From a virus, in IMG/VR virus record IMGVR_UViG_3300045988_044858, positions 1-36,557 of that record: a stretch of 36,557 bases of DNA. One strand, given 5' to 3'. This document shows positions 5,321 through 32,826 of this stretch, piece after piece. The first letter of the stretch is position 1. Each line of letters begins with the position of its first letter. A model generated the notes under the pieces. It saw only the letters and a program-made list of their open reading frames with translations, was not told the DNA's origin and did not search any database. The position numbers and the translations under genes were made by a program.

Positions 5321-7711
5321 TCACAAAGATAGTAATTTTTTGCTTTCCTCGCTACCTTTACGGATATAAACTACTTGTTGACCGTATAATTTCGTTCTTT
5401 TTAACTTTCCTTTAAACCAGCCCTTCATTTGCCGTATCGCTGTTGCCAGTTCTCGTCCTTTCGCGCTTGTATAATCTTCTTTCTTGCGCCCCATGGCATC
5501 TACCCAAAGCTCCATCAGGCAGAACGTGTTTTTTTGAACTGTCCCAACCTCTTCCAGCGATCCGGCCAGAAAGTCCGCGCGTTGTTGTTCGGTGCGCTCT
5601 TCATAGTCAGCCGGGAAAAGCCTATCTACGTAGTTTTCTATAATACCTACTAGCGGGCTTTCTTCTGTAAATTCTTCGCGCCCCTCGTTGGCGATCGCTT
5701 CGGCTTCGTCAGACAAAACAAGGCTTTCACCCAGCATGTACAGTTCCATTGCTTCCGCCCAAAGTTGGTCTACTATTTTTTCGAAAGACTTTTCAAAAAG
5801 TTTGTGTGTGTTCTTATTAGCGCATACCTCGATCGGGAAGAAACGGCGGTTTCCGGTTTTGTCCTTCAAAAACTCATCATCATTGGTTGACCCGAAAAAT
5901 ACACATTGTCGGCGGTGTGTCTTGACGCGTCTAGCGTACGCGCTACGATACGTATCTTCGCGTTTGCTTATGAAGTTCTTAGTAGCCTCCACGTCCGAAC
6001 GGCGAAGGGCTGACAACTCGGCTAGCTCCACGATCCAGGCGTGCTGTATCGCTTCGTACGCTTTTTGGCCGGACACGTCCGTTAATGAATCGTTGAACCA
6101 ACCTTTCGAAAGCGCCTGTATAAGCGTGGACTTTCCCGCGCCCTGTCCTGAATACATAACCAAAGCCGTATCAAACTTGCAGCCTGGCTCATAAACTCTA
6201 GTAACGGCTGCAACTAACATTTTACGGAGCGCCTCGGAAACGTATATGCTAGGCTCTGCGCCCATGTAGTCAACTAAGAAATTATCTATCCGTTTCACTC
6301 CGTCCCAGCGTTGTGCCTCTAGATACTTCTTGATAGGGTGGAAAGCGTTTTCGCTGCAAACCTTTTCCAGTGCATCGTTTAATTTGCTGTCATTATAAAT
6401 ACCGTGCAAAGCCTCTATACGTCCACGGATAATCGCTACTGCTGTGTCGTCCAACATATCACCTTTCTTTATGTCCTTCGAGAAGAACGGTGTCCGGGTG
6501 TACACGATCGTGTCTAGGAACAAGTCGTAAGCTAATAGATCATTTAATAGCGGATCACACTTAAAAGCGTTAACGAAGTTGCGAACGGTACACAATTTAT
6601 CACCTTTGCGATCCAAGTCCCAGACCAGTTCCTCGGCGGTCTGCGCGTCGCTCTTAACCTCGTCCGTGTATTCTTCGAAGTCGGCTAGGTCGTCATCAAG
6701 CGATACCATATCCTTAACACATTCTTTATCGGCGCAAATTAGCTTGTTCATCTCGCGGGTACTGTCTTCCTTACCCAGGTGCCCGAACTTGTGCACACGT
6801 ACCAAATCGTAGGCGTTATAGGCGTGTCCGTCTCCGATAGGGTCGGTTGAGTGGTGGGAAAAACAAAGCACGTCATCATACACTACCAGCCCGGCAGCGC
6901 CTGATCCAAGAACGTATGTATAACGGCCGTTTTCCGCTTCTGTGTAAACGTCTGAAAGGTACTTGTCTATTGCTGCCTGTATCGTGTACGAGCGGCAAAA
7001 CGCGCCTACCAAACCCTCCTTATCGCGGGGGTCTTTTGCCATCTCCTTACTAATAACGGCGCGGGTATCACGTTCTACTTCTGAATGGAATGCCCATTTG
7101 CGCACGTCGCGCCATTCTTCGCTGTCTCCGTAAAGGCCGATAAGATACTCGGCGCTGATCGGCTCGCCTTCGAACACTTCGAATAGTCCGGTTTGGTCTT
7201 TGGAAAGAGATTGCCAGTACATCATACGTTCCGGCTGAAAGGTTGTTTTATCGAATAAATCAATACCTAACAACTCGGCTACTTTACGCGCCGCGGCTTC
7301 GTACATTGTAACGTCTGTAACCTCTTCTTTGAACGGCATAATAAGACGGTAACGGCGCGATCCGGGGCGGTCTGATCTAGTAGTGTAGATGGCAGCGGCT
7401 ACGCCCGGAAAACGATCTGCAAAATCGAATGGGAATAAATCGTCGCCAAAGTCTACATCTAGCGTAATCATAGAGCGGGACATAACCGCTTTCTTAAGTC
7501 TCTGTGGGCCGGAGAGCTCGCCAGCCATGAATCCGCCTACATCCTTCAAAGACGATTTAGCGGGCTTGTCCAGCCTGTCGAACTCGCGTACCGTTTCGTT
7601 AGTGATAACGGGCGTTCCTAGTCTTTCCAAAAATGCTTCCCAAGTCATACGTACGGCCTTCCATTTCAGAGACGCCGAAGAACCTGCAAGCGATAAGGTG
7701 TATTTTTCCAT
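5321..7711 (-). CDS. bifunctional primase-polymerase / SF3 (VirE/D5-like) helicase
   Basis: 796 aa. The N-terminal half carries an AEP-like acidic motif (ITLDVDFGDD) and SHHSTDP. The C-terminal half carries Walker A SGQGAGKST and Walker B-like WIVELAEL. The gene sits immediately after the DNA polymerase gene. Confidence 0.8.
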   Translation of the reverse strand: MEKYTLSLAGSSASLKWKAVRMTWEAFLERLGTPVITNETVREFDRLDKPAKSSLKDVGGFMAGELSGPQRLKKAVMSRSMITLDVDFGDDLFPFDFADRFPGVAAAIYTTRSDRPGSRRYRLIMPFKEEVTDVTMYEAAARKVAELLGIDLFDKTTFQPERMMYWQSLSKDQTGLFEVFEGEPISAEYLIGLYGDSEEWRDVRKWAFHSEVERDTRAVISKEMAKDPRDKEGLVGAFCRSYTIQAAIDKYLSDVYTEAENGRYTYVLGSGAAGLVVYDDVLCFSHHSTDPIGDGHAYNAYDLVRVHKFGHLGKEDSTREMNKLICADKECVKDMVSLDDDLADFEEYTDEVKSDAQTAEELVWDLDRKGDKLCTVRNFVNAFKCDPLLNDLLAYDLFLDTIVYTRTPFFSKDIKKGDMLDDTAVAIIRGRIEALHGIYNDSKLNDALEKVCSENAFHPIKKYLEAQRWDGVKRIDNFLVDYMGAEPSIYVSEALRKMLVAAVTRVYEPGCKFDTALVMYSGQGAGKSTLIQALSKGWFNDSLTDVSGQKAYEAIQHAWIVELAELSALRRSDVEATKNFISKREDTYRSAYARRVKTHRRQCVFFGSTNDDEFLKDKTGNRRFFPIEVCANKNTHKLFEKSFEKIVDQLWAEAMELYMLGESLVLSDEAEAIANEGREEFTEESPLVGIIENYVDRLFPADYEERTEQQRADFLAGSLEEVGTVQKNTFCLMELWVDAMGRKKEDYTSAKGRELATAIRQMKGWFKGKLKRTKLYGQQVVYIRKGSEESKKLLSL

Positions 7712-10525: not shown

Positions 10526-11689
10526 TTAGCCTTCGATGTCGAAGTCACAAAGCGGGTTATATTCCACACCCTTAGCACTTTCCGGTACTAGTTTAGGTGC
10601 GCCGGGCCGCGATTCGATCGCGTCTCCAAATCTTGCGCTAAATACCTTTTTGCCTACCAGCTTCTCGAGATCTCCGATACCTTTTAACTTGATGTTTAGT
10701 ACTTCGTCCTCCAGGAACTCGTTTAAGAGCGCTTGACGTATTTTCGCCTCGTCCTTGATAACTCGGCTCGACCGTCCGGCTACTAGCTTGTAGCCCTCCC
10801 ATTTATGCCCCTGTATCGCTCTATCGTAGACGTACTTATTTACTGATTCGATCCAGCTTTTGTAAGTGTCGATCTTACCAATAAGGTCTGTTACTTCCTC
10901 GTCAGACAATAACAGTGGTTCGGGCTTTTCGTCGAAGTCTGCAAGAATTGCGTCACGTTGCGCCCTGCATTGGGCTTTAACCGGACAGAATTGGCACCAA
11001 CTTCCAATAACCTGTTTCCCTTCGCCATGTATTGCCGCTTTTGCGGCCGGTTTCAGGACTTTCTCCGCCCAATCAAGTAACTCACCCTTTGACATCTCAA
11101 ACGTGTCGTAGTGGTCTAATCTGACTTGTGCGATTGTCATTCTAATATTGGTTATGTCCTTCGACGCTGCCGCCTTCAAAGCTCCCAGAGCATACAACAT
11201 CATTTGTTCGTTGTAATCGGCTGTTACCTTAACGCCTGCGCCGTACTTCAGATCTATAATGTGTATTGCCTTGTCAGATGATAGTGTTACGTCTACCGAT
11301 CCGAACGAATCAGGTGCATAATCGGTAACGTCTACTTTACGTTCTAGGAACATCTGGCACGCGCCATCCTGTTTTTGCATCTCGTAACCTTCACCGATAA
11401 CGTATTCGCAATAGTCGCGAATGTAATTCGCCATATCAATACTAAACAGCGGGTTTTTAAGATGTTCGTCTTTGATTGGCAGGGCTTCGTCTATGATAGG
11501 ATCATAAGCACCGTTCAGATACTGTGTCAAAGCATGTTCGGCTATTTCGTGGGCTAGTGTGCCCTCTTCGGCGTAAACGCTTGACTTGCCGCCTGCGGCT
11601 TCCGCTAGTAGCGCCGACGGAGTACAATGTATCCATCGTTTCGCGCTACTTGGCGATAAAATCGCGTGTTCTCTATCCGCGTGTCTCAT
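10526..11689 (-). CDS. DUF2800-family PD-(D/E)xK (Cas4-like) nuclease
   Basis: 387 aa with HAILSPSSAKRWIHCTPS at the N-terminus, EGTLAHE, DLKYG, and a C-terminal Cys cluster CQFCPVKAQC. Confidence 0.82.
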   Translation of the reverse strand: MRHADREHAILSPSSAKRWIHCTPSALLAEAAGGKSSVYAEEGTLAHEIAEHALTQYLNGAYDPIIDEALPIKDEHLKNPLFSIDMANYIRDYCEYVIGEGYEMQKQDGACQMFLERKVDVTDYAPDSFGSVDVTLSSDKAIHIIDLKYGAGVKVTADYNEQMMLYALGALKAAASKDITNIRMTIAQVRLDHYDTFEMSKGELLDWAEKVLKPAAKAAIHGEGKQVIGSWCQFCPVKAQCRAQRDAILADFDEKPEPLLLSDEEVTDLIGKIDTYKSWIESVNKYVYDRAIQGHKWEGYKLVAGRSSRVIKDEAKIRQALLNEFLEDEVLNIKLKGIGDLEKLVGKKVFSARFGDAIESRPGAPKLVPESAKGVEYNPLCDFDIEG

Positions 11690-12216
11690 TATAGACGGCT
11701 TGAAATGTATGCAACAAAATCGTTAAACATCTCCTCCTTCAAGGTTGGGAAACTGGACGCGCCTACGCTTCCAAAAGCTTCTTGTACAATCGGGCGTTTC
11801 TTTGCGTTTAGCGCTTTCATAGCCCATGATTTACAATCGTCGATAGTATAAGACGCTGCATCCGTTTTAGGCGCTTCTACCTTTACGGGTTCTTCTACCT
11901 TTACGGGTTCTTCTACCTTTACGGGTTCTTCTGCTGGTGCAGGCTCTTCTGCTGGTGCAGGCTCTTCGCTCGGTGCAGGCTTCGCGGCTCGTTTAGCACG
12001 GGTCTTGGCGCGCTCTGCTTCCATCAATAGCGGCAAGCAAACTTCTTCGTCCTTCGCCTTTGTTGCTTCTACAACCGCGTCCGCTAACTTGTCAAGATCG
12101 GTTTTACGTTCCGTTACTTCTGGTACGGCTTCTCCCGCCAGCTCGCGCAAATAGTTGGAAGTTGCTAACAATTCCTTCACACTCTCATTTCCGATTAATT
12201 CGATTACTACTTTCAT
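11689..12216 (-). CDS. hypothetical protein with a Pro/Glu-rich hexapeptide repeat linker
   Basis: 175-aa ORF. Its centre is SEEPAPAEEPAPAEEPVKVEEPVKVEEPVKVE, encoded by six 18-bp tandem units. Confidence 0.7.
   Translation of the reverse strand: MKVVIELIGNESVKELLATSNYLRELAGEAVPEVTERKTDLDKLADAVVEATKAKDEEVCLPLLMEAERAKTRAKRAAKPAPSEEPAPAEEPAPAEEPVKVEEPVKVEEPVKVEAPKTDAASYTIDDCKSWAMKALNAKKRPIVQEAFGSVGASSFPTLKEEMFNDFVAYISSRL
11875..11982 (-). repeat. six in-frame 18-bp tandem units inside a CDS
   Basis: Three copies of ttctacctttacgggttc (EEPVKV), then two copies of ttctgctggtgcaggctc (EEPAPA), then one degenerate unit. Confidence 0.9.
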
Positions 12217-12392: not shown

Positions 12393-12709
12393 TTCATTTT
12401 CTCATTAAATTTAAAACTCAATTTGTCAGACGTTCGATAAGTTTGTACGTGATCGGAGTACGCGGCGCGCCGGGCCTGCTCGAAAATAGTTTCGTAACGT
12501 TTGGCGTGTGGAATTATAAAGCCCCGGATTTTATACTTAAACTTTTTTCCGGCCTCTTCTTCTCGTTGCAAATCATCGAACACCATTTTCGAGTTGCCCG
12601 GATAGCCATATAGCATTGTAGCCTCGCCTATCGTTTTGCACGCTGTAATCCTCTCCCGTATAATCTTGTAAAAGAACGCTTCTAATTTATAAATGTCTAT
12701 TGATGCCAT
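12380..12709 (-). CDS. hypothetical protein, first gene of the early unit
   Basis: 109-aa ORF directly downstream of promoter 12786-12815. Confidence 0.65.
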   Translation of the reverse strand: MASIDIYKLEAFFYKIIRERITACKTIGEATMLYGYPGNSKMVFDDLQREEEAGKKFKYKIRGFIIPHAKRYETIFEQARRAAYSDHVQTYRTSDKLSFKFNEKMKWKK

Positions 12710-12785
12710 ATCTAGTAATGTTTAAAACGATTCTCCGGTATCGGAATAGTTCAACAAATTTAGTTGGTTTCTCATTTCGACGTGA

Positions 12786-12815
12786 CAAAGGTAAGGCTTT
12801 GTTTTGAACTACAAA
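12786..12815 (-). promoter_or_regulatory. Bacteroidota-type promoter: TTTG-N18-TACCTTTG, heading the early unit
   Basis: The minus strand reads agTTTTGtagttcaaaacaaagcctTACCTTTGtcacg. A second possible -7 box, TAAATTTG, lies at 12755-12762. Confidence 0.6.
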
Positions 12816-12916
12816 ACTATTTCCCAAAAAACTTTAGTATTTTAACCCTGATTAACTGTTTTGAAGGTTTGATAACGGTGTAAATGATGAATAGCCCTTT
12901 TTAAGCGGATCTTTTA

Positions 12917-12951
12917 CACCTTAACTAATTGCGTATCAGTTAGTTAAGGTG
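12917..12951. other. perfect 12-bp inverted repeat with an 11-nt spacer, overlapping an iteron
   Basis: caccttaactaa-ttgcgtatcag-ttagttaaggtg. The left arm overlaps the ATCTTTTACAC site at 12909-12919. Confidence 0.8.
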
Positions 12952-13095
12952 GCGAAAACAGGGAAATGCATAAGATGTAAAGGTGTTTTCCATATAGTTT
13001 ATATTTAAATATTTCTATAAATTCATTCACATATTAATTCATATATTTACATATATTATAGATTATCTAATATTTATCTGTCAGCTCTATATAAC

Positions 13096-13198
13096 ATCTT
13101 TACATCTTTTACAAATGATATATATTATATGATAAAGTACTAGTTATTAGTGAGTTAAGTGTAAAAGATACAAATTTTAATCGTTTACATGCAAAAAC
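13096..13198. repeat. 103-bp dispersed repeat, copy R1
   Basis: It aligns with 32483-32584 at about 86 of 103 positions by eye. It includes identical blocks atctttacatcttttacaaat and gtgtaaaagatacaaattttaa with the same 56-bp iteron spacing. Confidence 0.85.
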
Positions 13199-13274
13199 GC
13201 CAACTCATTAAGAATCAGCGTTTTAAGTTTTCAAGTGTAAAAGATGGAAGGGCGTTTATGAAAGATGAAAGGCA

Positions 13275-13862
13275 TTATTTGCCGAATTCTGCCGAGAATT
13301 CTACGTGTATTTTAGATTTTGGGTTTTTATTCGATACGGTTATCGTTTGTTTCGGTTTTCCGATCCGGAAGAATAAAAAACGCTTTTGCTTGACTGATCC
13401 GATCACGTCGATCGTGTCGATACTGCTAGATTTTATAATCGTGGTGTCCGGTCGGGCTTCGACTTGTATATCATTCCACCCGTCGAAATAGTGCGCAAAT
13501 CGGTTTTCTTTGTCACCGTCCCGGTATTCCGTCTTAACCACGGTGTCCACCTTGGTAACTGTCTCGGCCCTTGTAGCGTTCTTAAGCTCTCTTATCTTTA
13601 TTCCCGCCTCGCGTACCTTATTATATAGATCGGCGTTATATAGTTCTAGCTCGTCCTTCTCTAGCTTTAACTGCCTGGCCTGTTCCGCATAATCGCCTGC
13701 CGTAGTCTTGAATGCTACGGCCTCAGTGTTAAGCGCGGTGAGGTTGTTTTCCTGCCGTTCTAGCTCTTTATGCTGCCTTTTTATAGTCTTATACGACGCG
13801 TACAATAAAATGGCTAGAAGGACCGCTAAACACACCAATATCTTATTTAATGTTATTTTCAT
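13275..13862 (-). CDS. membrane-anchored coiled-coil protein (spanin-like lysis accessory)
   Basis: 195 aa with an N-terminal TM anchor (ILVCLAVLLAILLYA) followed by a coiled coil. It has an ATGA overlap with the endolysin stop and is the last gene of the late unit. Confidence 0.5.
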   Translation of the reverse strand: MKITLNKILVCLAVLLAILLYASYKTIKRQHKELERQENNLTALNTEAVAFKTTAGDYAEQARQLKLEKDELELYNADLYNKVREAGIKIRELKNATRAETVTKVDTVVKTEYRDGDKENRFAHYFDGWNDIQVEARPDTTIIKSSSIDTIDVIGSVKQKRFLFFRIGKPKQTITVSNKNPKSKIHVEFSAEFGK

Positions 13863-20526: not shown

Positions 20527-23040
20527 TTATAAGCTAGCCGCTACCTGTACCCTATTATATTGTTGTTGGCCCTCGTCTATGTCGGTAACTGCCACCTGTG
20601 GGGCGGGAACGCTAGCCACTGAATCGTACATAATTGCCGCTAATTTCCGCAAACTGTCGTTCGACAGGCTAAAATTACTAGGTAACTGCATGCTTGCGCC
20701 GCCGCCTACGTCGATTTTGCCACCGTTGGCGTACCGGTACACGCCAGACGAACCGAACGAACGCCCGCCATACTCCATGTTAAGGGCTGATAACGCGTTG
20801 ATCGCGCTGGATGCCTTACGATTGAGAATGTACACATTTTCCCCGCCCTCGGCTTCGAACTGTTGCCCGTTTGACCCGGTGAACGTCACGCCGCCCGCCG
20901 CATGGCTAGCTCCGTAAATCTGCCCGCCTTTCGCATATTTCTTAACGCTTGTGTTGATCTTAGTGTCTGGCTCTTTGGTCTTGTTAATGCTCATAACGTT
21001 TTTCATACCCGCCGCCACTACGATAGCTGCCTGCGCGATACCCCAGATACCGCCCTGCGCGATTGCTTTAGACGCGCCTAGATAAGTATTGATAAGCGCC
21101 TGCGCCGTGGCAAATGCTTTCCCCGCTGCGCTCTCTTCACCCAGTAAGCTAGAGAGCTGTCCGGCTGTACCCGCTGCCATCTCTAACTGCGCGTTATAGT
21201 ACTTCCTCTTTGTCTCGTCCTTCATGATCTCGTAACGTTCGACTATGGAGGCCGTCTCCGCGCCAATGGCTTCCGCGTTCGCGATCTCGGCAGCCTTTTG
21301 CGCGTCCAACCGCGCTAGCTGACTTTCCAAATCGTTGCCTAGTTTCATGTCAGCTAGCGCGCGGTCGTTCTCTAGGTTGAGCGCTTGACGGTCTCGCTCC
21401 TTCTGATCTTCTTCGTCCTTCCGGGCCTTGACCTCCGCGGCGTATTCCAGTTCGAGTTGGCGAACGTTGTTTATATACTCTTGTTCGCCTATAAGCCCCT
21501 GTGCGCGTCTGTACGTCTCTATTTCTATCTTCTTATCATTGACCGCTTGCAGTTCTTGCAACGACGCTTGAGCACCTTCAATTTCCCGCTGTGCAATATC
21601 TAGCTGCATTGCGGTAACTGCTTCTGAATATTTCTTAAGTTGCGCGTCCTGTGCTGCTTTGATAGCGTCCTGCGCCTTCTTGTGCGCTTCCGCCTCTCTT
21701 CTAGCCGCGTCTTCCGCCGCCTTCGCTGACCTCGCCGCCGCCGCTTGTGCCGCTTGTGCCTGCTTGTCCCTCTCTTGCTTTATGAAGCCGGACACCTGCC
21801 CCGCCATTTCTTTTTCCTGTGTAGCGTATTGGGCGCGTGCTGCTTCCAGCGCCGCAAGGGCTTCCTGTTCTTTCCGTGCATCCTCGTCGCTTGTATATCC
21901 TAGTTGGTTCTCGGCTTTGATCTGCTTGTATTTAGCTTCCAGTACCGACAGCTCCATATCACGGATAGCGTGCAGCTTTTCCCTAGCTTGTTCTAGCAAC
22001 TTAGTACGTTCCGCCGCTGATTTGTTTTGATCCGCTGCCAGCGTCTTAAGCTCTTCCATCTCGCGCCGCATCTGTGCCATCGGGACGAGTGCCGCCGTTT
22101 CAGCTTGGTAAATCTTCTGCGTTTGGGCTGCTAGCTTCGCGCCTTCCGCCGCTGCCCTCTTCGTCTCTTCACTGATAAGCCCCAGCTTATCCAATAGCCA
22201 TGTAACGCCTTTAGCAATGTTCTCAAGCACGAACGCCACGCCTTCAAACAATCCGGTTATCCAGTCCAGCAAACGCCCGAAAATCACTTTAAACGGAGCG
22301 AACGCCGCTTGCAGGCTAGTCGCTAACTCGCTGTTGCGTTTCATTAGCTTCTCGACAATGCCGATAAGAGTTAAGACGAGAGACACGACAAAAATAATAG
22401 GGTTCGCTTTTAATGCTGCGTTGAACGCCTGCACCCCGGCAATACCACTTTTCATTTGCCCTACTAGCGCGCCAGTGCCCCCGGTTAGCCCCTGTGTCTG
22501 TAATATACCGTCTTTAACGCTCTCGGCGTAATTACCGACATTACGGCGGTTGTCGCCTACCGACTTTTCCAGCTCCTTAAGCTTGTCCGATAACGCCTTG
22601 GTCTGCTCGGTCAGGTCCTGCCCCTCCTTGCTGGTAGTCCGTTGCGCCTCGCTCATCTTGTTTAGCTCCGTGGTGTTCTGCGCCAACTGTGCACGCAAAG
22701 CGTTAACGCTCGTAGCCTCATTGTCGAGAAGCGTTTTTGTAGACTTGATCTCGGCGTTATTCTGCCTGTTGGCTTCTGTGTTGTCCAGGATCGCCTTTTG
22801 CGTCTCAATAAGAGACTTATTCAGCTTCTTAACAGTCGCGTCGTACTTGTCTTGCTGTACAAGTCCGTCCGCGTAATTCTGATTTAACGCGTCTAGCTCC
22901 TTCTTTTCAGAAGCGTAGGCCGCTTGCAAATCCTTTTTAGTCTTTGCAAGGGCCATACTCTTAGCTATTAACGCGTCTAGCCCCTTCTCGGCTTCAGACG
23001 TGCCGAAATTAAGGTCTAATAGTGTTACTTGATCCGCCAT
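20527..23040 (-). CDS. tape-measure-like protein (alternatively an internal or ejection protein)
   Basis: 837 aa with very long coiled-coil stretches and hydrophobic segments (IIFVVSLVLTLIGIV and GIWGIAQAAIVVAAG). The C-terminus is Gly-rich. Confidence 0.6.
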   Translation of the reverse strand: MADQVTLLDLNFGTSEAEKGLDALIAKSMALAKTKKDLQAAYASEKKELDALNQNYADGLVQQDKYDATVKKLNKSLIETQKAILDNTEANRQNNAEIKSTKTLLDNEATSVNALRAQLAQNTTELNKMSEAQRTTSKEGQDLTEQTKALSDKLKELEKSVGDNRRNVGNYAESVKDGILQTQGLTGGTGALVGQMKSGIAGVQAFNAALKANPIIFVVSLVLTLIGIVEKLMKRNSELATSLQAAFAPFKVIFGRLLDWITGLFEGVAFVLENIAKGVTWLLDKLGLISEETKRAAAEGAKLAAQTQKIYQAETAALVPMAQMRREMEELKTLAADQNKSAAERTKLLEQAREKLHAIRDMELSVLEAKYKQIKAENQLGYTSDEDARKEQEALAALEAARAQYATQEKEMAGQVSGFIKQERDKQAQAAQAAAARSAKAAEDAARREAEAHKKAQDAIKAAQDAQLKKYSEAVTAMQLDIAQREIEGAQASLQELQAVNDKKIEIETYRRAQGLIGEQEYINNVRQLELEYAAEVKARKDEEDQKERDRQALNLENDRALADMKLGNDLESQLARLDAQKAAEIANAEAIGAETASIVERYEIMKDETKRKYYNAQLEMAAGTAGQLSSLLGEESAAGKAFATAQALINTYLGASKAIAQGGIWGIAQAAIVVAAGMKNVMSINKTKEPDTKINTSVKKYAKGGQIYGASHAAGGVTFTGSNGQQFEAEGGENVYILNRKASSAINALSALNMEYGGRSFGSSGVYRYANGGKIDVGGGASMQLPSNFSLSNDSLRKLAAIMYDSVASVPAPQVAVTDIDEGQQQYNRVQVAASL

Positions 23041-32222: not shown

Positions 32223-32244
32223 ATAATTTTTATTTACAACTCTA

Positions 32245-32252
32245 CAAAATTA
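32245..32252 (-). promoter_or_regulatory. -7 box TAATTTTG upstream of terS (candidate late promoter)
   Basis: The minus strand reads gagTAATTTTGtagagttgtaaataaaaattatATG. No well-spaced TTTG -33 element is present. Confidence 0.45.
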
Positions 32253-32295
32253 CTCTTTTTCCGCCCAAATCGCATCATTTACGCCTATCAAAACC

Positions 32296-32351
32296 ATCTT
32301 TTACACCTGAAACCCCGATGGATAGGGCGTTTCAGCCCGAGTGTAAAAGAT
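32296..32351. other. 56-bp composite palindrome: two inverted iterons enclosing a nested hairpin
   Basis: atcttttacac / gtgtaaaagat (11 bp) flank ctgaaac-c-ccc-gatggata-ggg-c-gtttcag. Confidence 0.8.
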
Positions 32352-32352
32352 G

Positions 32353-32360
32353 CAAAGATA
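32353..32360 (-). promoter_or_regulatory. -7 box TATCTTTG abutting an iteron and the 56-bp palindrome
   Basis: The minus strand reads ttTATCTTTGcATCTTTTACAC. A transcript starting here would begin inside the 32296-32351 palindrome. Confidence 0.35.
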
Positions 32361-32482
32361 AAAAGACGTTTTCCCTATTAGATATATTTTAAAAAAATAC
32401 CCCAAATTAATTATTTAAAATAACAATAGTATATTTATGTTAACTGTATTATTACTTTTTATAATGTACTCCACTAGTATCT

Positions 32483-32584
32483 ATCTTTACATCTTTTACA
32501 AATACACTATATTACAGTATAAAGTACTATAAATAAGCGATTTAGGTGTAAAAGATACAAATTTTAACCTTTTACATCAAAAAC
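32483..32584. repeat. 103-bp dispersed repeat, copy R2
   Basis: Same orientation as 13096-13198. It lies in the ORF-free region upstream of terS. Confidence 0.85.
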
Positions 32585-32783
32585 TTGAAAAGTACGTTCT
32601 ACGTCTTGTGGGGCTGGTCAGCTGTAAATGATGAAATGGCAATGTAAAAGACGTTTTGGCTACTTTTTTTGTCAAAAACAGGCTTTTTAGTTAAAATACC
32701 GTTAAAATCAAGTTTTCTCTATAAAAAGTTTTCTCTCACAAAGTTTTTGTAGAAGTGCGCCAAAAGCGTGTTAACGGTTTTAA

Positions 32784-32820
32784 CACAAAAAGGGGTTAAC
32801 ATTTTTATACATTAACCCCT
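32784..32820 (-). terminator. rho-independent terminator ending the early unit
   Basis: The minus strand reads AGGGGTTAAtgtataaaaatgTTAACCCCTTTTTTGTGTT: a 9-bp stem, a 12-nt loop and a U-run, 7 nt after the stop at 32827. A second 7-bp hairpin, gtgttaa/ttaacac, follows at 32768-32786. Confidence 0.75.
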
Positions 32821-32826
32821 CAATCC

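Follow-up and report, generated by a model that had tools for sequence, protein, structure and literature searches.

The question raised by the gap upstream of terS in this phage genome is which protein reads its repeated decamers, and whether they serve packaging, transcription or replication. Judged by its sequence, the window, by which we mean the whole 36,557-nucleotide stretch of DNA analysed, represents almost the entire genome of a siphovirus of the Bacteroides ovatus type. The nearest relatives by megablast are siphoviruses of B. ovatus, B. koreensis and B. kribbi of ~36-37 kb (~88% identity, 80-91% query coverage), including BO1, BKO1-1 and the series BK735P, BK687P and BK745P, while phages of B. 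caccae, B. thetaiotaomicron and B. fragilis are remoter. Siphoviruses of ~36-38 kb (cluster alpha and relatives) are among the most often isolated phages of human gut Bacteroides.

The minus strand carries every gene of the window. In gene direction, with the order taken from annotated relatives, the late block runs through terS, terL, the structural genes and the lysis genes to a first gap, R1. This is followed by small early genes and then by the genes for an exonuclease, a DUF2815 protein, DNA polymerase A and a 796-aa primase-helicase; the early block closes with VRR-NUC, SNF2 helicase and methyltransferase genes, a terminator and the second gap, R2, after which terS is reached again. No large gaps occur in the window besides R1 (12710-13274) and R2 (32223-32826), which also have its highest AT content; each lies directly upstream of one of the two operons, and no other gap bears a promoter. 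GC skew is monotonic across the window because all genes are co-oriented on one strand, and it is thus uninformative on origins. An Rfam scan of the whole window brought no family to threshold.

A preliminary description had placed seven decamers of one family in R2 and had called the region a second iteron field of the R1 type. A motif scan finds all seven where they had been placed (Table 1), and the kinship of the fields is borne out by the motif excess and by shared site positions. TGTAAAAGA, the commonest non-simple 9-mer of the genome, occurs in exact form at 10 places in the 36.5-kb window; nine of them fall within the R1 and R2 gaps (3.2% of the window), and the tenth lies at 12667, 35 bp within the first gene after R1. 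When one mismatch is allowed there are 25 matches against 11.7 +/- 3.1 expected, a count reached in none of 100 shuffles.

Table 1. Window coordinates of the features of R2, of its counterpart R1 and of the primase-helicase gene.
Feature	Position	Strand	Remarks
Bacteroides-type -7 box of the terS (late) operon	32245-32252	-	TAATTTTG; outside the shared module
s0, promoter-proximal half-site	32273-32282	-	Inverted-repeat pair; conserved in an alignment of 45 relatives
R2 composite hairpin/cruciform	32295-32352		Outer stem s1/s2, 12 bp; inner stem CTGAAAC..GTTTCAG
R2 decamer s1	32296-32305	-	ATCTTTTACA; iteron; left arm of composite hairpin
R2 decamer s2	32342-32351	+	TGTAAAAGAT
s2 + s2b tandem iteron pair	32342-32360	+	TGTAAAAGAT then GCAAAGATA; left flank of AT block
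s2b, degenerate tandem partner	32352-32360	+	GCAAAGATA
R2 AT-rich block, candidate DNA-unwinding element	32361-32481		121 bp, 84% A+T
s3b + s3 tandem iteron pair	32482-32500	-	TATCTTTACATCTTTTACA; inverted relative to s2/s2b; right flank of AT block
s3b, degenerate tandem partner	32482-32491	-	
R2 decamer s3	32491-32500	-	
Conserved 46-bp spacer	32501-32546		..ATAAAGTACTATAAATAAGC..; common to R1 and R2
s4 (+) / s5 (-) inverted iteron pair	32547-32576		20-21 bp apart around near-invariant A-tract ACAAATTTTAA
R2 decamer s4	32547-32556	+	
R2 decamer s5	32567-32576	-	One mismatch
s6 / s7 direct iterons	32623-32652	+	20 bp apart
R2 decamer s6	32623-32632	+	TGTAAATGAT; one mismatch
R2 decamer s7	32643-32652	+	TGTAAAAGAC
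Intrinsic terminator closing the preceding gene block	32790-32821	-	
R1, sister module	12879-13266		Same site slots, offset -19,387 bp
R1 s1	12909-12918		
R1 hairpin	12917-12951		Sequence differs from R2 hairpin, position same
R1 AT block	12987-13094		
R1 s3b/s3	13096-13113		
R1 s4	13160-13169		
R1 s5	13180-13189		
R1 s6	13236-13245		
R1 s7	13257-13266		
796-aa primase-helicase, putative iteron-binding initiator	5321-7711	-	From family matches, fold model and covariation
Predicted C-terminal winged-helix domain of the primase-helicase	5321-5548		~Residues 722-796
Residue 778 codon	5378-5380		Gln in this genome

The architecture that had been described for R2 also holds up. The 604-bp gap contains no ORF, and the terminator lies inside it at 32790-32821; the inverted site is fused to a hairpin that is real by single-strand DNA folding (-17.3 kcal/mol, z = -7.0); an AT-rich block lies between sites; an inverted pair follows, 55 bp apart from start to start (32492/32547); and the direct copies begin 20 bp apart at 32623 and 32643. 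Of all 100-bp windows of the genome, the one at 32376-32476 within the AT block ranks second for low stability (z = 3.79). The block is bracketed by tandem pairs that form an inverted repeat with 19-nt arms, 95% complementary and 121 nt apart, and in some relatives the left pair is a perfect tandem, TGTCAACGATGTCAACGAT. The half-site s0 reads GTAAATGATG in gene direction, and GGAAAGATG in most relatives. Two tandem copies of AAGTTTTCTCT(A/C) lie at 32710-32737, between the terminator and the module, a direct repeat that shows no enrichment in the window.

The parallel with R1, also proposed previously, proved stronger than had been claimed, as s1, s3, s4, s5 and s6 of the two regions coincide at one gapless offset of 19,387 bp. 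Sequence likeness is confined to a 105-bp core (13091-13195 versus 32478-32582; 78% against a background of 32%), while the hairpins and AT blocks are at background identity (~30%). The slots thus coincide where the sequences do not, indicating that geometry has been conserved in the absence of sequence conservation. The R1 hairpin folds at -11.9 kcal/mol (z = -3.8), and the R1 AT block holds the least stable 100-bp window of the genome (12993-13093, z = 4.15).

Invertons, promoter switches that flip between inverted repeats, are common in Bacteroides, and the 19-nt arms around 121 bp of AT-rich DNA could in principle flank such a switch. We rejected this reading, to which we assign next to no probability: the block has the same orientation in all 27 aligned copies, which come from different samples, the annotated genome of the close relative BO1 contains no recombinase gene, and the arms of the repeat are themselves iterons that covary with the helicase, as described below.

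To follow the sites across relatives, more than 80 distinct copies of the module were gathered from GenBank relatives and IMG/VR contigs. The slots are fixed across these copies and it is the decamer that varies, appearing as TGTAAAAGAT, TGTAAACGAT, TGTCAACGAT, TGTCATAGAT or TGTCAAAGAT. The variants shift in step, both among the slots of a given module and between R1 and R2 of a given genome, and base 4 of the decamer (A or C) switches in concert at no fewer than six fixed slots in R1 and R2 alike. Concerted change at many fixed slots is what would be expected if the sites are read by a single co-evolving protein. In the more distant relatives BT03 and BF1-3 both gaps keep the succession of tandem pair, AT block and inverted tandem pair with a different repeat, GGATAGAT, and the C-terminal domain of their primase-helicase is divergent. 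BC679P1, likewise a distant relative, has sites of the TGTCATAGAT type and an Arg at the position equivalent to residue 778 of the primase-helicase.

Apart from the decamers, the copies in three relatives (L009, L018 and L020) differ from those of the window in that some R2 copies have a hairpin of the R1 type and the distribution of spacer variants over R1 and R2 is shuffled from genome to genome, which indicates recombination or gene conversion between the two regions. In the R1-equivalent gap of BT03 (~20990-21313), three tandem units of ~110 bp (..GTAGTTAAACGTTCGGCCCCACC.AAACCGGGTTGAGGAAATAACGGGGAAAAGTGAAAGGGATTCCCCACGGAAACA..) separate the iteron field from the first early gene; this unit is absent from the window.

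We therefore sought the protein that changes with the decamer. Genomes were classed by base 4 (A or C), and every variable residue of every window protein was tested against this class in tblastn-derived alignments, with 27 genomes as a discovery set, 16 GenBank isolates held out, and 47 genomes in total. In the discovery set, residue 778 of the primase-helicase, within the motif RTKLYG-X-QVVYIRK, ranked first among the well-populated columns. The held-out isolates followed the same rule in 16 of 16 cases: all 11 with Arg778 have at least three TGTC sites in R2, and the five without Arg (three Ala, two Ser) have none. With a threshold of at least two TGTC sites, 21 of the 47 genomes have both Arg and the sites and 24 have neither, against one with Arg only and one with the sites only (Fisher p = 3.7e-11); Arg778 and TGTC thus go together, as a statistical association, in 45 of 47 genomes, which are related to one another though mosaic, the exceptions being 038600 and 035735. 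Among 4,968 variable protein columns, column 778 (p = 1.5e-9) stands five orders of magnitude from the next best (4.4e-4).

Several observations argue that this association is not simple linkage. Both alleles of residue 778 occur on identical C-terminal backgrounds, and two of the three such pairs also differ in site class; the gene is 8-10 kb away from the sites; no gene specific to one site class was found; and no residue tracks site class in TerS, in the 59-aa HTH protein, in the 109-aa and 175-aa early proteins or in any other protein. It had been suggested earlier that the decamers bind a phage-encoded protein, and they do behave as such binding sites, since they co-evolve with a residue of one. 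The binders then proposed, TerS and the small HTH proteins, fare less well, as it is the primase-helicase, and none of their residues, that follows the site variants. The specificity for the iterons thus appears, from these alignments, to lie in the C-terminal domain of the initiator, and the pairing of an Arg in the predicted wing with C:G at base 4 would fit a direct or near-direct contact.

These data bear directly on the idea that the decamers are operators for a small phage transcription factor, for example the HTH_17 protein of 59 aa or the 109-aa protein whose gene comes just after R1, that represses or activates both operons. HTH-like genes do lie immediately downstream of R1, and s4 and s5 are arranged as a palindrome with an A/T-rich spacer at its centre. 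However, neither protein has residues that track the A and C classes, genomes of the two classes share 94-98% identity in the 59-aa protein, and the absence of a class-specific gene and the rank of the primase-helicase column point elsewhere; we consider such operators improbable.

Packaging was the other alternative raised in the preliminary description, in which R2 would be a pac- or cosB-like array of small-terminase sites where packaging starts. Its position directly upstream of terS is what such an array would have, the GenBank record of BKO1-1 starts within R2, and two metagenomic contigs end in the core beside adapter sequence. Against this, the same array with the same geometry is found in R1, 19 kb from terS, TerS does not covary with the sites, and the contig ends of ~40 assemblies are scattered or clustered elsewhere, in a repeat-bearing early gene, rather than concentrated in R2; breaks in assembly at the R1/R2 repeat could account for the ends in the core. 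In addition, the related phages of cluster alpha gave no defined termini with PhageTerm (10.1101/2020.03.04.977157). Because the array is duplicated far from terS, does not track TerS and does not collect contig ends, a packaging role is weak as an explanation and, in our judgement, very improbable. Known cosB and pac arrays resemble R2 in having repeated sites that adjoin terS, and differ from it in that the R2-type array is duplicated far from that gene and co-evolves with a replication initiator instead of TerS.

The record and contig ends just mentioned deserve a more exact account. Position 1 of the BKO1-1 record (PQ571266) corresponds to window ~32689/32690, 465 bp upstream of terS and off any gene boundary. 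The two IMG/VR contigs, L019 with an R1-type core (~13135) and L027 with an R2-type core (~32522), end within the conserved spacer between s3 and s4 and are joined directly to adapters, TruSeq before GATAAAGTACTAG and Nextera before GTACTATAAATAAGC; these ends may reflect either a break in assembly at the R1/R2 repeat or a true terminus or nick of the DNA in the core. Many other assemblies and GenBank records break in the 175-aa early gene (11689-12216; 21661-21755 in the BKO1-1 record), 250-400 nt upstream of the exonuclease gene. In relatives this gene contains short tandem repeats with the units CACCGATCG and AGCAGAAGC, which are probably the reason for these arbitrary start points.

What kind of protein is the primase-helicase? 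Its residues 464-682 match the VapE-like SF3 ATPase domain (Pfam PF05272, E 7.9e-78), the 460 aa at its N-terminus have matches in families of phage primases and helicase-primases, and its sole solved relative, PDB 7pds (E 6.6e-74, residues 386-711), is the Rep1 protein of a SaPI (Staphylococcus aureus pathogenicity island) in complex with DNA (PMC9371898). By sequence it is a clear homologue of the SaPI Rep initiator-helicases, which are SF3 self-loading helicases and act as initiators via a winged helix in the C-terminal domain (PMC9371898). An AlphaFold2 model of residues 722-796 (pLDDT 74) predicts a strand, three helices, a strand, a wing and a final strand, and places residue 778 as the last residue of the wing, just before that strand. 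The Foldseek matches of this 75-aa model are weak, with every E above 0.1, but nearly all of them are winged helices, the best TM-score being 0.59 to 7pds_F; a longer and poorer model of 159 aa has 7pds_F as its top match (E 5e-3). Both models rest on shallow alignments (9-11 sequences), since a homologue search with the C-terminal 159 aa gave 10 matches, most of them fragmentary. The predicted winged-helix fold is accordingly likely but not proven.

In SaPI origins 6-12 iterons surround an AT-rich centre, no fewer than two per side, and those on the two sides point in opposite directions (PMC9371898); both R2 and R1 likewise have two or more iterons on each side of an AT-rich centre, oppositely directed. 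Because neither TerS nor the HTH proteins covary with the sites, we read R2 as an origin-type site of the primase-helicase rather than a pac or cosB array. Specifically, we propose that R2 (32273-32652) is probably one of two iteron-type origin modules, the other being R1, with the primase-helicase as initiator.

The proposed mechanism would run as follows. The predicted C-terminal winged helix of this SaPI-Rep/PriRep-like SF3 self-loading primase-helicase would read the TGTAAAAGAT decamers, and the opposed tandem pairs would bring initiator assemblies to either side of the 121-bp AT block. The block would then open and let helicase rings load, and priming would fall to the primase domain of the same protein. 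Cooperative binding would come in addition from the outer sites s1, s4-s7 and s0, while the hairpin might be extruded or serve as a signal for priming. We infer physical binding, melting and origin firing, as well as firing from both copies, from sequence.

The closest known systems are the Rep/PriRep initiator-helicases of SaPIs with their iteron origins, for example PriRep5 and ori5 of SaPI5; PriRep5 is a fused primase-helicase of 790 aa with a C-terminal domain (676-790) required for origin binding (PMC9371898). The likeness extends to a homologous protein with a VapE-like SF3 ATPase, to the fusion itself and the order of its parts (796 aa in the phage), to a C-terminal winged-helix domain, predicted in the phage, and to two oppositely oriented iteron sets that flank an AT-rich centre. 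Both systems also have cognate pairs of initiator and iteron, which in the phage are seen as natural covariation. The differences are equally marked. The phage iterons are ~10 bp long, against 5-6 bp in SaPIs, and the host is a virulent Bacteroides siphovirus instead of a staphylococcal satellite. The SaPI origin is a single copy directly downstream of rep, whereas the phage has two full copies, each fused to the promoter region of an operon and each with extra outer sites and a conserved hairpin. No TGTAAAAGA site is found near the primase-helicase gene (5321), and the fields lie 8-10 kb from it, ~7.6 kb (R1) and ~9.7 kb (R2) from its 3' end.

Two other phages offer partial parallels. The alpha protein of phage P4 is a primase-helicase with a C-terminal origin-binding domain, and the same iterons occur in its ori and in crr, several kb apart. 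P4 thus resembles the present phage in that one primase-helicase is paired with the same iterons in two separate cis elements. It differs in that crr is a pair of direct repeats without an origin anatomy of its own, unlike R1 and R2, both of which have the full layout. The sequence search of solved structures with the 796-aa protein listed 7pds only, and no solved P4 alpha domain. In Bacillus phage SPP1, oriL and oriR are bound by G38P, and the likeness lies in two distant origin regions of one genome with the same initiator-binding repeats adjoining AT-rich DNA. The SPP1 initiator, however, acts as a replisome organiser, by which a distinct helicase loader and a distinct helicase are recruited, and is not an SF3 self-loading primase-helicase.

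The P4 precedent bears on the strongest competitor of the origin reading, in which the same protein binds R2 as a regulatory, crr-like field that controls the terS promoter or loops to R1, so that R2 does not fire and only R1, or neither, is the true start. The candidate -7 box (TAATTTTG/TATTTTTG) is invariant, as TA[AT]TTTTG, in 45 relatives. Bacteroides promoters have a -7 element TAnnTTTG and a -33 element TTTG, usually 19-21 nt apart, and the sole TTTG upstream of this box, ~13 nt away, is too close for a canonical -33; the box and its poor -33 had been noted before, and both stand. The iteron-like half-site s0 lies ~21-30 nt upstream of the box (about -35) and s1 at about -50 to -60. Moreover, the modules sit exactly upstream of the two operons, in the sole promoter-bearing gaps and 8-10 kb from the initiator gene, unlike in SaPIs, and P4 has a crr separate from its ori with the same iterons. 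On the other hand, the origin anatomy of R2 is complete, with inverted tandem pairs, the second least stable DNA of the genome, a hairpin and slots that match those of R1, and no feature marks it as the lesser copy. We therefore regard a purely regulatory R2 as unlikely, though less so than operators or packaging sites, and still prefer the origin reading, with which a further effect of initiator binding on the late terS promoter is possible. In that case the decamer-binding protein acting at the late promoter, as envisaged in the preliminary description, would be the initiator rather than a dedicated transcription factor.

Two further suggestions concern how the modules might work together. 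The initiator helicase might double as a temporal switch, whose accumulation, or else origin firing itself, would damp early-operon expression from R1 and permit that of the late operon from R2. We offer this only tentatively, as it seems a shade more doubtful still than a regulatory R2; if true, late transcription would be coupled to replication without a dedicated late activator. R1 and R2 are nearly opposite each other on the circular map (19.4 and 17.2 kb apart) and might pair by looping. As for other promoters in R2, a -7-like box between s4 and s5, TAAAATTTG, was rejected, as it takes a 9-nt form and lacks a -33 at a workable distance, and a sigma-70 promoter scan of R2 was uninformative (3 matches against 2.9 expected).

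An SF3 Rep initiator with an iteron origin is known; what would be new here is its occurrence in this host group, with iterons of 10 bp, with two complete copies that occupy both promoter gaps, remote from the initiator gene, and with a natural pairing of a residue with a base. A paper on related B. thetaiotaomicron isolates does not contain the word 'replication', and we found no description of an origin in it (10.1101/2020.03.04.977157). Our analysis places two candidate origins to within ~120 bp and names a putative initiator, and would extend the SaPI-Rep type of initiator and origin layout from staphylococcal satellites to virulent phages of Bacteroidota. The one-residue, one-base pair, Arg778 with TGTC versus Ala or Gln778 with TGTA, makes the system directly testable, and phage-dependent replicons and the engineering of these phages are possible uses.

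Two minor observations concern the margins of the modules. A 100-aa ORF at 13189-13491 (+), on the strand opposite to the genes, extends across the right edge of R1 into the 3' end of the DUF6549 gene; its counterpart in BC679P1 is annotated as a CDS (1057-1359 +), and the ORF is probably spurious. The R2 gap of BC679P1 contains GAGAGAAAA(C/G)TT ~6 times, the same motif as in the AAGTTTTCTCT repeat of the window, and its R1 gap contains one copy beside the -7-box-like TGTTTTGTAG; this motif may be the site of a second factor.
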